Origin: Escherichia phage vB-Eco-KMB40
Direction: 5' to 3' (one strand)
Sequence record: OR539220.1
DNA length: 64,000 bases
The notes under the pieces are model-generated. The model was not told the origin of the DNA and searched no databases. It worked only from the letters and a program-made list of their open reading frames with translations. Of the stretch, positions 2,424-54,261 are shown one piece after another; position 1 is the stretch's first letter, and each line of letters opens with the position of its first letter. The position numbers were made by a program, and so were the translations under genes.

Positions 2424-2453
2424 ATTATACCACATCCTTGTGGTAAAGTAAAC
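2424..2453 (-). promoter_or_regulatory. early sigma70-type promoter (GTTTAC -35, TATAAT -10)
   Basis: minus strand GTTTAC at 2448-2453 and TATAAT at 2424-2429, 18 nt apart; upstream of rIIA.1/rIIA; 32 nt identical to promoter at 46641. Confidence 0.6.
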
Positions 2454-4270
2454 TACTGACTCATCCATTCTTTACGAAGGTCAGCATTATCTCCCATGAG
2501 CATTTCAAAAAGCTCTTTCCAGTTCTCAGGAAGTTTAACAACATCATATACTGGATTTTGAATCATCTCACGATATTCAGATTTTTCCAAAGAGCCAAGT
2601 CCCTTAATATAACGGATGCTATGTTTAGGTAGAGCATCTTTGGCACTCTCATATTCAGCGACTGTATAAAACCATTCTTGTTTTTTACCGACCTGAGCGA
2701 TGATTACAGGAGTTTTGACAAAACGAATTCGTCCTTGCTCAAACAATTCTGGCCAATTACTAAAAAATCCGAGCAAAGAAGGATAAATGCTTCCTAGACC
2801 ATCATGGTCAGCATCAGTCATAATAGCAATATTATGATAATTCAAGTTTTCAGCTTTTTCACCGAGAACTAATCCAGTGATTGCGCAAATATCAAATAGT
2901 TCTTTGTTTTTAAGCATATCTGCATAAGACATACCCCAACTGTTGAGAACTTTACCGCGCAATGGATAACCACCGTGAAGTTCTTTATCGCGAACATCAA
3001 TAAGATATCCGATAGCAGAATCACCCTCAGTCAAGAAAAGAGTAGTGTCAGCATCTTTACCACAAAGATTCGCTTTGATATGTTTATGAACCTTAGCTTT
3101 AGAAGCCTTTTTAGCTGCTTTAGTTTCTGCTGCTTTTTCTGCTGCCAATTTACGAGCCAAAGCAGCTTCAATAATTGGCATCAAAATTGCTTCATTATTT
3201 AGAATAGCACGTGAAATCTTTTTAGCATCAAGCTGAATATGACTACGGATTTCACCAAATGGAGAAGTCAAACGCTCTTTAGTTTGAGAATCAAATCGCA
3301 TGTTTTTCATATCACGAACAAACATAACGATAGTCAAACATTCTTTGACACGCGCTTTAGTTACATCAATTTTGAACTTACGTTTGATTTGTGGAATAAG
3401 GTCTTCACAAATATCATCCATAACACAGTCAATGTGATGGCCACCATTCTTAGTATGAATGTTATTGACGTATGTTAATTGACGAAATCCATCCGGTGAA
3501 CGACCAACCGCAATAGAACAATTTTCTTGTTCTTGAACAATAGCATGTTCATCATACTGTCGTGCATATTTCTTAAAATTGCCCTGAACCTTTTTACCAT
3601 TAAAGGTAAATTGAATATCAGGATAAACAACAGCAAGTGTCTGGAGACGATCTAATGTAATGTCAAGATAAACCTGAGATAGCTCATTAGTTTCAAATGA
3701 CATAAAATCAGGAATGAAAGTAACGCGAGTTCCTTTCCATTTTCCAGGAATATCTTCCCATGATTTATTTTCCATGCCATTTGAACAACGAACTACAATA
3801 TTATTTTGACCATCACCAGTTTCACCGACAAACATCACAGAAAAAATGTTTGTCAAACTAGAACCAACACCATTCATACCGCCGGTGACGCGTTCTTTAT
3901 CATCACCGAAGTTACCACCTGCTTTTGGAATAGTCCATGCAGCAACAGGACCAGGAATTTCTTCACCGGTAGGTGTTTTAACCATCGCTTGCGGAATACC
4001 ACGACCGTTATCTTCAACTGTTACTTGATTGTTTTTAATAGTAACATTAATTTTATTTGCGAATTTAAACTTAGTACGAATACCTTCATCTACTGAGTTA
4101 TCGATAATTTCATCAATAAGCTTAACAAGACCAGGTACATACTGAACACTTTCCCATTTACCAAACAGAAAGCGCTCATGCATTTCATTAGCAGAAGAGC
4201 CAATGTACATGCCACTACGCTTTTTGATATGTTCAATATCGCTCAGAATTTTAATTTCATTCTTAATCAT
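2453..4270 (-). CDS. 39: DNA topoisomerase II large subunit, unsplit (605 aa)
   Basis: GyrB-like ATPase motifs, N-terminus MIKNEIKILSDIEHIKKRSGMYIGS as T4 gp39; continuous ORF covers the part encoded separately by gene 60 in T4; track start at 4273 is GTG, ATG at 4270. Confidence 0.9.
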   Translation of the reverse strand: MIKNEIKILSDIEHIKKRSGMYIGSSANEMHERFLFGKWESVQYVPGLVKLIDEIIDNSVDEGIRTKFKFANKINVTIKNNQVTVEDNGRGIPQAMVKTPTGEEIPGPVAAWTIPKAGGNFGDDKERVTGGMNGVGSSLTNIFSVMFVGETGDGQNNIVVRCSNGMENKSWEDIPGKWKGTRVTFIPDFMSFETNELSQVYLDITLDRLQTLAVVYPDIQFTFNGKKVQGNFKKYARQYDEHAIVQEQENCSIAVGRSPDGFRQLTYVNNIHTKNGGHHIDCVMDDICEDLIPQIKRKFKIDVTKARVKECLTIVMFVRDMKNMRFDSQTKERLTSPFGEIRSHIQLDAKKISRAILNNEAILMPIIEAALARKLAAEKAAETKAAKKASKAKVHKHIKANLCGKDADTTLFLTEGDSAIGYLIDVRDKELHGGYPLRGKVLNSWGMSYADMLKNKELFDICAITGLVLGEKAENLNYHNIAIMTDADHDGLGSIYPSLLGFFSNWPELFEQGRIRFVKTPVIIAQVGKKQEWFYTVAEYESAKDALPKHSIRYIKGLGSLEKSEYREMIQNPVYDVVKLPENWKELFEMLMGDNADLRKEWMSQ

Positions 4271-4297
4271 CACTTATCCTCGTTTGGTTTCGGGAAT

Positions 4298-4781: not shown

Positions 4782-5195
4782 TTATTCCTTAAAGTGAGCT
4801 TTCAACATCTGATACAAGGACCATGCCTGTTCATTATTTTCAATAGTAACTTTCATTACAGGGAATTTAGATGGATCAGTTATCGGTGCAGATTCTTCCT
4901 GCTCTTCAGCTGCCTGGTATGGATTTTCAACTTCATTAAAGAACTCAGCTTCGCTCGTTGAAAGCCAAATAAAGTCTTCATCCAAAATATCTTTACCAGA
5001 AGATAGTACTAAATTTCCAGTAGATGTCACAATTTTAGTAGGACGCCCGTAATAGTCAACATCTAAAATTTTAAAAGGTTCCATACCTAAACGGCGCGCA
5101 TAGATTCCGTTATCAGTATGGTCTTTAATAAAATTTTCTTGAGCTTGTTTATTTTTAAATTGATACCATTTATTAACTTCAAATTTAATAGCCAT
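4782..5195 (-). CDS. hypothetical protein (137 aa)
   Basis: ORF in 39-cef interval; no recognised motif. Confidence 0.5.
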
Positions 5196-5410
5196 TAATA
5201 AATTTCCTTCCAGTAAGTTGTGCCATCTTCAGTAATTTCACGAAATACACCATAAATTGGCTGTTTATCGCCGACTTTCTCATACACATAAACCGAAGTC
5301 AAGTGAGTAAACTTGATGGTGTGTTCCTTTTGAACTACTACCAAATCTGGATCAAATAATACATCTTCAAATTCATCATTAGTGCAGTTCTGAACAATTT
5401 TACGTTTCAT
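5195..5410 (-). CDS. hypothetical protein (71 aa), at position and size of T4 cef
   Basis: 71-aa ORF with SD GAGGAAA; assignment by position and length only. Confidence 0.4.
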
Positions 5411-5508
5411 TATAATTTCCTCATTAATTGAACAGTGGAGCGATGCGTTTCAAAAGAGTAGCAGCACCTTTAGCGAATTTTCATTTTATTCTCCAAGTTG
5501 TTTTCTGT

Positions 5509-5551
5509 ATCAGTAGTTGATATTGATATAGTACCATAATCAACTACTGAT
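5509..5551. repeat. 13-bp perfect inverted repeat around a promoter -10-like element
   Basis: ATCAGTAGTTGAT at 5509-5521 and ATCAACTACTGAT at 5539-5551, 17-nt spacer attgatatagtaccata. Confidence 0.7.
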
Positions 5552-5579
5552 GTATATAGTTTTATGAAAAATTTAAACT

Positions 5580-6068
5580 TTATGCATAGAGAGCATTGCT
5601 ATAGTGTTTAATCCAGCTTTCAGGAATGACTTTGTATGTTCCTAAAAATACCACATTGTACAGCTTAACACCATCTTCTACCCATTGATCAGTAATGTAT
5701 GCACACATAGCGCGAGTATAACAAGCCTTTCCATCATCTTTGATAAATTTAAATTCACAAGGAGCAATGAACTTGATAGCCTGACCGAGTTTCCACTTAA
5801 AGTCTACACCTACATGCGAAGTATCAATCGTTTCAATTCCTTTAGCGGGAACAGCTTTCAAAAACGCAGGCTCAAGAAATTTCGCACGAACATAGCCAAA
5901 CTGAGGTTTAGACTTTCCATCCTTAGGAATAATACGCACTTTTACTTCAGAATCTTCATCTTTAACGCCATGTTTAAGCTGAATGCTTACAATTTCAACC
6001 AATTTTCCTGCTGCTTTAGAACGGGATTTATCAGATACACGAGCAATTTCACCAATATTAATAATCAT
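5580..6068 (-). CDS. motB: MotB-like protein (162 aa)
   Basis: 162 aa as T4 MotB; position between cef-like ORF and dexA. Confidence 0.6.
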   Translation of the reverse strand: MIINIGEIARVSDKSRSKAAGKLVEIVSIQLKHGVKDEDSEVKVRIIPKDGKSKPQFGYVRAKFLEPAFLKAVPAKGIETIDTSHVGVDFKWKLGQAIKFIAPCEFKFIKDDGKACYTRAMCAYITDQWVEDGVKLYNVVFLGTYKVIPESWIKHYSNALYA

Positions 6069-6112
6069 AGTTATCTCTCACTTGTTAAAAAGATTTTATA
6101 CTCCACAGGACC

Positions 6113-6142
6113 ATTATACTCTGGTCCCAAGAGTTTGTAAAC
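6113..6142 (-). promoter_or_regulatory. early sigma70-type promoter
   Basis: GTTTAC at 6137-6142, TATAAT at 6113-6118; upstream of motB. Confidence 0.55.
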
Positions 6143-6144
6143 TA

Positions 6145-6687
6145 TTACTTCAAAATAGCTACCACCGCACTACGAGGTACTACACTAAAATCACCTGCAT
6201 GAACAACGTTCAGAAGTTCAACACCATCTTCAATCCACTGGTCTGTTACCCAACCACAGACCGAAATAAATGGAGTCTTGATAGCTACAGCACGAGTTAG
6301 AAGGTCGGTAGGGTCTTGTTCTTCAACTTCTTGGAACAGGATGAACTCATCTTCATAAACCAGGTTTTTCTTTATTTTGTTATTATCTAACCGGCGACCG
6401 TGGATGACGTAAGATTTGTCAAACCACTCACTTTTGGCAAATTCTTCAACAATAAATTCGCCTTCGCCAAAAACATCAGTCAGAGTTTTATGACCGGAAA
6501 TCAAGGCATTAGTTTTAATTTTAGGTTCAACCAGTTTGTAGGTTTTGCCGATTTCAATAGTGGTAGTCATAGTAGGTTCCTTAATTTCCAGTGGTTTAAC
6601 AGGGCATACATAAGTGCTTACAACATCAAAATCAATCAGTTTAGCTACCGGATTCGATATGTATTCAGGATTATAATTAAATTTCAT
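6145..6687 (-). CDS. MotB paralogue (180 aa)
   Basis: C-terminus VTDQWIEDGVELLNVVHAGDFSVVP resembles motB ITDQWVEDGVKLYNVVFLGTYKVIP. Confidence 0.5.
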   Translation of the reverse strand: MKFNYNPEYISNPVAKLIDFDVVSTYVCPVKPLEIKEPTMTTTIEIGKTYKLVEPKIKTNALISGHKTLTDVFGEGEFIVEEFAKSEWFDKSYVIHGRRLDNNKIKKNLVYEDEFILFQEVEEQDPTDLLTRAVAIKTPFISVCGWVTDQWIEDGVELLNVVHAGDFSVVPRSAVVAILK

Positions 6688-7190: not shown

Positions 7191-7217
7191 TTTATTATCC
7201 TCAGTAGCTATGGTGTT

Positions 7218-18184: not shown

Positions 18185-18213
18185 AACAATCTCCTCATTT
18201 AACCAACAAGACT

Positions 18214-18243
18214 ACTATACCATAGTCTTGTCAGTTTGTAAAC
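18214..18243 (-). promoter_or_regulatory. early sigma70-type promoter for dmd
   Basis: GTTTAC at 18238-18243, TATAGT at 18214-18219, SD AGGAG downstream. Confidence 0.55.
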
Positions 18244-19670
18244 TAAAATTTTAATTCATTTGCCAAAGCATCTAACTGAGCTCGAGTGGATTCATTTCTT
18301 TGATAGCGATTCTGTTCAGCCTGAATCTGTTGTGAACCTGCTACTTCACTCACTTCGGTTGGAGTAGAATCTTGTTCAATTTCTACCCATTTTTGATTTC
18401 CTTTTTGAACACCCATCAAAAACTTATTCCACTTATTCTTATCACCATATCGTGATTTGATTTGCTTAATAAGTTGTTGTTCAGCAGCTGCCAACTCCTC
18501 GGTTTCAATGACCGCAAGCATAAAATCGGCTGTCGCTGGAAGACCAGCAGATTCTGCGATATCACTCATGTTAACATCAGAAGAATCCCAAGCTTGTTTA
18601 CCAACCTGTGCTGCAGTCCAAAGAACAGTTTCGGTTTCAACAGCCAGAGCACGCAATTCCTCTGCGATAGCTTTAACAGTTGTGTAACTATTTTCTGAAT
18701 AAACTCTAATGCGGCAAGATTTACAAATACCTAGATAGTCGACAATAATGATTGTTGGAACAAAATTCTTCTTGAGCTTTAATTCATTTAAAAGTGATCG
18801 AAATGTATTAGCGTCTGCTCCACCAGTAGGATATTGTTTAACGATTAAACGACCGAGAGTAGATTTCTCACGCCATTTTTCCATTTTTCCTTTATACTCA
18901 GCGTAAGAAATATGCCCATCATCAATGTCATCAAGAGAAACATCGAGCATATTAGCGTCAATACGTTTAGCACAGACTTCTTCTGCCATTTCCATGGAGA
19001 TATAAAGAACGTTATGACCAAGCTGCAAATAATCTGCTGCTAATGAACAAAGTCCTAATGATTTACCAACGTTAACGCCAGCCATTAAAACGTTCAGTGT
19101 TCCTGTTTCAGCTCCGCCTTTAGTAATTTTATTCAAAATACGAAGTTTAAATGGAACTTTACGAGCTTTATTCATATAAGATAGCCAACGTGCTTCGTAG
19201 TCATCCATCCAATCATGACCAACGTAGCTATCAAATGAAATTGATAATGCTTGGCGCATGATGTCAGGAATAGCACCAACATCCGGCATTTTCTTATTTC
19301 GTTTTTCCGGAGGAAGTTCAGCATTAGTTTGAATTTCGATTATTTTAGACGTAGCATTAAACATCGCCCTTTGCTGAACATATTTTTCTGTTTCTTTTAC
19401 TAACCAGCTGTGGTCTTCTGGAGAATCGGCTAGTTTTGAAATAAGTGTTTTTACACCAGAATATTCCGTTTCAGTAAATGAACTATTTTCTAATGCAACA
19501 TTTAACGCATTAATAGATGGAACGCTATGATACTCATTAACATGAGATTTAATTAATTTGAACGTATTTTTAGCTGGACCACTTTCAAAATATTCTGAAT
19601 CCATATATGGCCAAACTTTTGAAAAATAAGCTTGATCAAATATGAGATGAGAAAGAATAATTTCTACCAC
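18243..19670 (-). CDS. 41: replicative DNA helicase, DnaB-like (475 aa)
   Basis: 475 aa as T4 gp41; Walker A GVNVGKS. Confidence 0.9.
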   Translation of the reverse strand: MVEIILSHLIFDQAYFSKVWPYMDSEYFESGPAKNTFKLIKSHVNEYHSVPSINALNVALENSSFTETEYSGVKTLISKLADSPEDHSWLVKETEKYVQQRAMFNATSKIIEIQTNAELPPEKRNKKMPDVGAIPDIMRQALSISFDSYVGHDWMDDYEARWLSYMNKARKVPFKLRILNKITKGGAETGTLNVLMAGVNVGKSLGLCSLAADYLQLGHNVLYISMEMAEEVCAKRIDANMLDVSLDDIDDGHISYAEYKGKMEKWREKSTLGRLIVKQYPTGGADANTFRSLLNELKLKKNFVPTIIIVDYLGICKSCRIRVYSENSYTTVKAIAEELRALAVETETVLWTAAQVGKQAWDSSDVNMSDIAESAGLPATADFMLAVIETEELAAAEQQLIKQIKSRYGDKNKWNKFLMGVQKGNQKWVEIEQDSTPTEVSEVAGSQQIQAEQNRYQRNESTRAQLDALANELKF

Positions 19671-23902: not shown

Positions 23903-23924
23903 ATCCGTATTAGTTGATAGTTGT

Positions 23925-23954
23925 ATAGTACCATGGAAGAACAGTCTTGTAAAC
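23925..23954 (-). promoter_or_regulatory. early sigma70-type promoter
   Basis: GTTTAC at 23949-23954, TACTAT at 23925-23930; conserved TGGTACTATACAACTATCAAC block shared with promoters at 49613 and 51052. Confidence 0.55.
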
Positions 23955-49584: not shown

Positions 49585-49612
49585 TTTGTGTTCCTCCGTA
49601 GTTGATAGTTGT

Positions 49613-54027: not shown

Positions 54028-54055
54028 TCTCTTCTCCTTGGCAGTTGACAAGATT

Positions 54056-54085
54056 ACTATACCATAACCTTGCCAACTTGTAAAC
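54056..54085 (-). promoter_or_regulatory. early sigma70-type promoter
   Basis: GTTTAC at 54080-54085, TATAGT at 54056-54061. Confidence 0.5.
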
Positions 54086-54087
54086 CA

Positions 54088-54261
54088 TTAAATGGCGTTT
54101 TCAATAAAATTCTGAAGCTTTGTGTGAGCATCAACCATGATTTTCATTTCTTCTTTGGCGAAAGCTGTACCTCTTTCCCGAGAAGAACATTCATAGTCAG
54201 AAACTGCATTAGCATATTCTTCAATTAGTTTCATTAAAAACATCTGCTTTTCAGTTTTCAT
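54088..54261 (-). CDS. hypothetical small protein (57 aa), not in ORF track
   Basis: MKTEKQMFLMKLIEEYANAVSDYECSS...; SD AGGTGG. Confidence 0.4.
   Translation of the reverse strand: MKTEKQMFLMKLIEEYANAVSDYECSSRERGTAFAKEEMKIMVDAHTKLQNFIENAI

Follow-up and report, generated by a model that had tools for sequence, protein, structure and literature searches.

T4 is a reference for the takeover of host transcription by a phage, yet it is incompletely understood how its early promoters are shut off and what becomes of its read-through early RNA. Promoters combined with RNA stem-loops have been described in this phage group. The promoter-early stem-loops (PeSLs) of T4-type phages are composite promoter/terminator cassettes (Arbiol et al. 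2010, PMC2839356; Comeau et al. 2014, PMC4122927). In the case of the T4 genes e, soc, 49 and I-TevI, hairpins with a promoter embedded in them sequester the ribosome-binding site (reviewed in PMC3014915). The elements at the internal-protein loci of T-even phages, as the work of Repoila et al. (1994) is described in PMC2839356, are built on T4 early promoters and have A/T-rich stem-loops that vary in size. The element considered here is an inverted repeat in the 169-bp gap between the genes motB and cef in record OR539220.1; the window is the whole stretch of 64,000 nucleotides that was analysed, and it belongs to a T4-like phage of the genus Tequatrovirus. We lean towards reading the element as a composite promoter/hairpin module, in which an early-promoter cassette of the T4 type also specifies an RNA stem-loop.

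Positions 5100-6200 of the window match 557 phage records, with the highest identity (97.4%) to ECML-134. Both genes that border the gap are on the minus strand: motB (5580..6068) lies upstream and its transcripts run into the hairpin, and cef (5195..5410) is the first intact gene downstream of the cassette. T4 has the same gap, and window positions 5509-5551 correspond to T4 6582-6624. Other parts of the neighbourhood depart from T4. The gp39 topoisomerase subunit is a single 606-aa ORF (2453-4273, minus strand) where T4 has the separate genes 39 and 60, which means that the translational-bypass insertion of gene 60 is absent. Where T4 has the 119-aa motB.1, the window has a 180-aa ORF (6145-6687) that is called ‘MotB-like’ in the SA20RB record, in a stretch that is variable among relatives. 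A strong promoter-like site is found upstream of motB at 6141-6113.

On the plus strand, the element consists of a left arm at 5509-5521 (ATCAGTAGTTGAT), a spacer at 5522-5538 (ATTGATATAGTACCATA) and a right arm at 5539-5551 (ATCAACTACTGAT), the exact complement of the left. The original prediction of a 13-bp perfect inverted repeat with a 17-nt spacer proved exact on rechecking, in coordinates and in letters. Its second observation, that the -10-like block GGTACTATA is shared with the early promoters at 23924, 49612 and 51051, was confirmed as well, and a further copy was found at 7217. In the element this block lies on the minus, gene-sense strand (5535..5527); it occurs 5 times in the window against 0.24 copies expected, and none of 100 shuffles held 5 or more. 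The repeat is the longest perfect one in the window with a loop of up to 40 nt, and it extends inward imperfectly to give 20-nt arms that are 85% complementary around a 3-nt loop. Yet when the window was simulated 100 times with a first-order Markov model, a perfect repeat of at least 13 bp came up in 8 of the runs, so the repeat by itself is mildly improbable and is weak evidence. The element is judged to be above chance because of the z-scores of its fold, the near-invariance of the 43-mer and the clustering, in the 5' arm, of substitutions that create base pairs.

Read in the sense of the genes, the gap is laid out as an early promoter. From the motB stop codon, the minus strand runs through AGTTTAAATTTTTCATAAAACT, ATATAC/TATACA, a 17-bp spacer ending in TGG, TACTAT and ATCAAT, and then continues through ATCAACTACTGAT, ACAGAAAACAACTT, GGAG and AATAAA to ATG. 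The A/T-rich, UP-like tract AGTTTAAATTTTTCATAAAACT (5558..5579) stands directly 3' of the motB stop codon and is common to canonical early promoters; within the -40 to -60 interval, TTTAAATTTTTCATAAAAC aligns with the similarly A/T-rich AAAAATTTTTCACAAAAC of those promoters. The -10 hexamer TACTAT (5528..5533), with TGG ahead of it as an extended -10, belongs to a block that is shared with T4 P8.1 and other early promoters. Together, TGG TACTAT (5536-5528) has the T at -12, the A at -11 and the T at -7 that follow a TGn motif, and it is identical in three canonical promoters. The 5' arm of the repeat (ATCAGTAGTTGAT in gene sense, 5539..5551) covers promoter positions -30..-18 and with them most of the -35/-10 spacer. 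The 17-nt loop (TATGGTACTATATCAAT, 5522..5538) corresponds to -17..-1 and carries the TGn (5536-5534) and the -10 hexamer, and the 3' arm (ATCAACTACTGAT, 5509..5521) corresponds to the predicted +1..+13. The start was predicted at position 5521, where the 3' arm begins, from the usual distance of 7 nt between the -10 and +1. This arm is also the conserved initial transcribed sequence of the cassette family.

Three canonical early promoters, at 23930, 49618 and 51057, align with the cassette in all blocks and have GTTTAC as -35 at equal spacing, and the block TGGTACTATA also occurs at site 7223, identical to the experimentally studied T4 promoter P8.1. The cassette differs from them in its -35 region. 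The T4 early -35 GTTTAC is absent from -36..-31, where ATATAC stands instead (4/6), and the -35 can also be read as TATACA (5551..5556), which matches TTGACA at 4 of 6 positions and lies 17 bp from the -10. The -35 had been called degenerate; this is right insofar as it is weakened, but with TATACA at 17-bp spacing, a TGn and an UP-like tract it is not absent. A generic promoter/terminator scan called the site neither a promoter (8/12 hexamer matches) nor a terminator. Middle promoters with a MotA box and late promoters (TATAAATA) were considered too, and neither motif is properly positioned. The promoter reading of the original prediction gains from the -10 and TGn, which are those of the canonical early cassette family including the P8.1 orthologue, and the motB-cef cassette would be expected to act as a promoter. 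A literature search for T4 transcript ends, conducted without Sanson and Uzan 1992 and Miller et al. 2003, found no start-site map, and the papers on MotB, DksA and GoF do not discuss the motB-cef site; GenBank M89919 is the sequence of the region by Sanson and Uzan 1992.

The ribosome-binding region of the cassette lies beyond the repeat. The SD region GGAGAATAAAA (5484..5494, minus strand) is found 14 nt downstream of the hairpin and outside the stem: the SD GGAG is at +28..+31, the 3' arm ends at +13/+14 and the helix therefore excludes the SD. GGAGAATAAAA is a perfect match to the consensus of strong RegB sites, GG*AGRAYARAA. A RegB-type SD region of this sequence is also present in the cassettes at 23930 and 51057.

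As RNA, the sense strand of the element folds at -21.9 kcal/mol (z = -5.2) and as DNA at -11.5 kcal/mol (z = -4.5), and in both cases no shuffle folded equally well. In the fold, a 2x2 internal loop separates the 13-bp stem from an inner stem of 5 bp, which is capped by a 3-nt loop. An Rfam scan of 5000-6200 gave no match at E <=1. The transcript of the cassette's own promoter would not contain the hairpin, because it would begin with the 3' arm (predicted +1, 5521), and hairpin formation would accordingly be restricted to RNA that reads through from motB. This changes one of the original proposals, that an RNA hairpin modulates the promoter: an RNA hairpin is supported, but it would mark the read-through RNA, as the promoter's own transcript lacks the 5' arm. 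In the mechanism that we favour, E. coli RNA polymerase would start at the first base of the 3' arm and the resulting RNA, devoid of the 5' arm, would stay unstructured, while the motB read-through RNA would contain both arms and form a stable hairpin 28 nt past the stop codon. Since the hairpin leaves the SD uncovered, a translational block is unlikely and the role of the hairpin would be that of an intercistronic element. Its likeliest function would be that of either a decay barrier for the 3' end of the motB mRNA, for example after a RegB cut at the GGAG 14 nt downstream, or an attenuator of read-through. Older T4 literature, for instance on the internal-protein loci, may already describe hairpins that bracket the -10.

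The element is far better conserved than its surroundings. Of 498 phage records, 479 (96%), T4 included, carry the 43-mer without a single change, and 18 have 1-2 differences in it, whereas the window's sequence of the adjoining 43 nt is matched exactly by 16 of 487 records on the upstream side and by 3 of 385 on the downstream side. The comparison with T4 that had been suggested at the outset thus yielded an identical 43-nt element in the same gap, and the loss of the palindrome in relatives, which was to count against it, was not observed: the palindrome is retained in T4 and in almost all Tequatroviruses. An alignment of 18 distinct sequences has a near-invariant block from about -50 to +13, with polymorphism in the T-run, at +15, +22 and +25 and at the end of motB. 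No change in the 5' arm was found in these 18 sequences, and the sole arm variant seen is an A to G in Lv5cm that turns a U-A pair into U.G. The arms are otherwise invariant and contain no compensatory changes, and covariation evidence comes from other cassettes. In metagenomes, a scan with the 17-nt loop gave 83 loci, about 73 of which were unrelated chance matches; 10 of 10 T4-like contigs had perfect arms and the standard loop orientation. A pattern scan of IMG/VR in which the arms were left free returned 2 loci only. Taken as sequence comparison, this conservation indicates a constraint which covers the whole polymerase footprint and which is inseparable between hairpin and promoter.

Other early promoters can be searched for the same geometry. 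When 10-11 early-promoter sites of the window were folded, strong hairpins that enclose the -10 were found at four (59066, 49618, 7223 and 5533). An extended survey, at a cut-off of z <= -3, took in 15 sites of the window and 8 of T4 60-110 kb, 23 in all. Complementarity between the spacer and downstream sequence brackets the -10 in 9 of the 23, or in 8 of 22 if the regB promoter, which is in both sequences, is counted once. Inverted repeats of spacer and post--10 sequence were noted at window sites 59066, 49618, 7223, 62161, 54061 and 18219 and at T4 sites 65390, 62773 and 73915. For pairing between a promoter spacer and a 5'UTR, the mean is -11.5 kcal/mol when both belong to one promoter and -7.5 kcal/mol when they do not (permutation p = 0.00025). 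In 5 of the 9 hairpins, the 3' arm overlaps the SD, which suggests that an anti-SD sequence is built into the promoter spacer of these five; in 5533, 54061, 18219 and T4 ipI it does not, and the ipI promoter has a 9-bp repeat that brackets its -10.

One pair of cassettes consists of the paralogues at 54061 and 18219 (54030-54090 and 18188-18248, minus strand; ..TATGGTATAGTA..), in which 13 of 13 pairs are kept through 3 compensatory double changes and 4 wobble-compatible ones, while slid controls pair at 23-62%. A shuffle control, which for this comparison has two sequences only to draw on, was not significant (65 of 500 shuffles equal). The G.U pairs of 54061 and 18219 form on the sense strand, which favours selection on read-through RNA that arrives from upstream. 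Variation in the P8.1-type hairpin is too slight to inform, with one G.U to A-U and one G.U to U.U among 9 sequences. The gene denV is preceded by unlike cassettes in T4 (65390) and in the window (62161), each of which has its own hairpin over the SD. The window's denV cassette (62161) resembles the T4 ipIII promoter, implying that the ipII/ipIII-denV region has been rearranged. From this survey it can be proposed, tentatively and as a possibility that we do not consider the likelier outcome, that -10-bracketing hairpins are a selected, RNA-level design feature of T-even early-promoter cassettes, specific to the promoter's own 5'UTR and kept by compensatory and G.U changes. If this were true, RNA from a cassette's own promoter and read-through RNA would be treated differently in translation, RegB cleavage or decay, and the difference could contribute to the distinction between immediate-early and delayed-early expression. 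The motB-cef palindrome would then be a young member of the class, made by templating, whose pairing is with +1..+13 and not with the SD.

The motB-cef cassette behaves as a module and precedes unrelated ORFs in different phages. Downstream of it, an intact 89-aa ORF is present in Pu-Krd-SF5 and CrRp10 (pieces L004 and L005, 625-894), and the window retains a remnant mini-ORF, ATG AAA ATT CGC TAA (5470..5484, minus strand), after an internal deletion of about 210 bp in the 89-aa ORF. This ORF occurs in some Tequatroviruses; here and in T4 a remnant of 4-11 codons is left, the deletion having occurred between short AAAA repeats. In ES26 (MN508618, an unverified record; piece L011, about 401-520) the cassette is joined straight to the cef start. 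Its hybrid SD region there, GGAGAATGTAATG, appears to be a recombination of two ribosome-binding regions. CrRp10 and two metagenome contigs have another gene upstream and the same 5' boundary of the cassette.

The nearest paralogues are promoter cassettes upstream of e.8, in T4 (about 70.67 kb, with the promoter at about 70672), Mosigvirus and Dhakavirus. The T4 e.8 cassette has a near-identical 5'UTR and lies about 64 kb away on the same strand, and it is not palindromic. Cassettes of the e.8 type have the -35 GTTTAC and the spacer ATCC(C/T)TGTTCTTC, and drive an unrelated ORF. In Mosigvirus (piece L019), the e.8 cassette has the exact loop variant of the window and is identical to it from the TATGG of the loop to the ATG, except for one A. 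All 10 substitutions that separate the motB-cef cassette from the e.8 type fall within -35..-18, and 8 of the 10 hit the ten arm positions that were not yet complementary, each of the 8 making a pair. Quasipalindrome-templated mutation is classical in T4, where it was shown in rIIB, and resembles what is seen here, namely a palindrome made perfect by clustered substitutions. A single templated origin is most likely for the perfect arm: to judge from these alignments, the complement of +1..+13 would have been copied into the promoter spacer of a canonical e.8-like cassette by one quasipalindrome-type event and kept since. The two changes in the -35 are not accounted for by such a templated copy.

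Such an origin opens the way to a rival reading, in which the palindrome is a neutral by-product of one template-switch (quasipalindrome) mutation, serves no purpose whether the promoter is active or in decay, and persists by descent and by constraint on the promoter. The changes against the e.8-type cassette are confined to 20 nt, which fits a single event, and the arms are purely Watson-Crick, whereas the hairpins of other cassettes have wobble pairs. The cassette may also be decaying, given that the downstream ORF is deleted in T4 and the window; conservation spans the full promoter footprint and not the arms specifically, and 8% of the simulated windows contain such a repeat by chance. Against these points, promoter spacers normally vary freely, but none of the sequences examined has a change in the 13 nt of this spacer arm, and polymorphic sites are found close by. 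The occurrence of -10-bracketing hairpins in 9 of 23 promoters, with specificity for their own 5'UTR (p = 0.00025) and compensatory change, also speaks for a function. We regard a purely neutral palindrome as unlikely, although it deserves serious attention.

The hairpin could also be read as a factor-independent terminator of the motB transcription unit, as its stability and its position just beyond the motB stop codon might suggest. SA20RB (OL960581; piece L001, 901-951) carries a rho-independent terminator annotation, a WebGeSTer prediction, and the stem-loops of RB49 PeSLs are reported to terminate (PMC2839356). The structure of the motB-cef hairpin is a poor fit: there is no U-tract 3' of the stem, where the tail is ACAGAAAAC, the stem is A/U-rich (4 of 13 pairs are G-C), the apex is 17 nt or internally looped, and the scan mentioned above did not call it. 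Classical intrinsic termination is unlikely for a stem without a U-tract. The early genes cef and goF, moreover, would then have to rely on a promoter with a weakened -35. A terminator is therefore improbable, and the automatic label in SA20RB is probably a mis-annotation that may spread to other records.

A palindrome that is a perfect dyad centred on the -10, with half-site centres 30 bp apart, or about three helical turns, invites the idea in the original prediction of an operator for a dimeric regulator, whose half-sites at -30..-18 and +1..+13 would occlude the promoter; the mechanism by which T4 early promoters are shut off is, after all, not fully understood. The window as a whole lends this idea no support. 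With up to 2 mismatches, the arm motif has 7 matches against 2.9 expected, none of them palindromic, and only the one at 49594 is related as an initial transcribed sequence; in all 64 kb there is no second copy of the palindrome and no paired half-sites. The 3' half-site is the initial transcribed sequence shared by the cassette family and is unpartnered at other promoters. The sister hairpins change in sequence yet keep pairing, G.U included, and this tolerance of G.U in related hairpins is a sign of RNA rather than of DNA recognised by a protein. Nor is there a known protein that would be a candidate, and we consider an operator very improbable.

One natural variant bears on the repeat as DNA. 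In Pinarejo (PP925831; piece L009, 441-483), the 17-nt loop is exactly reverse-complemented and the arms are unchanged, an arrangement which may be a real micro-inversion or an assembly artefact. Hairpin-loop micro-inversions occur in chloroplast non-coding DNA, and Pinarejo is like them in having a loop inverted between intact arms. A junction-specific query for the flip found Pinarejo only among about 500 records and no case in 10 metagenome contigs, and in the flipped orientation no recognisable promoter is formed on the opposite strand. As a single case for which an artefact is possible, Pinarejo shows that the repeat is able to drive inversion or strand switching and that a phage without the sense-strand -10 is viable. 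That the element works as a DNA-level cruciform or hairpin, either an invertible mini-switch or a recombination hot spot that flips the -10 between strands, is very improbable, for although the Pinarejo loop and the predicted stable DNA hairpin would suit it, just 1 of about 500 records and 0 of 10 contigs carry the flip, which might be a rare accident or an artefact, the flipped loop makes no recognisable opposite-strand promoter, and no invertase is implicated.

The composite promoter/hairpin module remains our preferred reading. If hairpins that enclose the -10 act as RNA, each cassette would distinguish its own transcript from a passing one, and a principle known from a few late genes would be extended to an appreciable share of the early promoters. 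A clean test case is the motB-cef element, with perfect arms, a free SD, the non-palindromic e.8 cassette as a control and the loop-flip variant of Pinarejo.

The known systems can be ranged by what they share with this element. Quasipalindrome mutation and chloroplast micro-inversions are mutational mechanisms and explain origin rather than function. The e.8 cassettes of T4, Mosigvirus and Dhakavirus are identical or nearly so in the -10 block, initial transcribed sequence, 5'UTR, SD and ATG context, but they have the canonical GTTTAC -35, an ordinary spacer, no palindrome and an unrelated ORF. The elements of the internal-protein loci, so far as they are described at second hand, are likewise T4 early promoters with A/T-rich stem-loops, and in our survey ipI has its 9-bp repeat around the -10. 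With the hairpins of e, soc, 49 and I-TevI, the motB-cef element shares a promoter inside the 5'-strand/loop region, so that upstream RNA would fold and promoter RNA, given the predicted +1, would lack the 5' strand. Those are late promoters with the helix over the SD or AUG, whereas the motB-cef promoter is of the early type and its SD is outside the helix; five other early promoters in the survey do cover the SD. PeSLs are alike in their A/T-rich upstream tract, sigma-70-type early promoter and 3' SD and ATG, and also in being repeated in the genome, located beside variable small ORFs or indels and attached to unrelated ORFs in different phages. They differ in that their stem-loop lies just upstream of the promoter, while the motB-cef stem straddles the -10 and is A/T-rich. 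The motB-cef cassette has the sequence features of a PeSL except the position of the stem-loop, and with the predicted +1 it would have the geometry of the late-gene hairpins without the sequestration of the SD.
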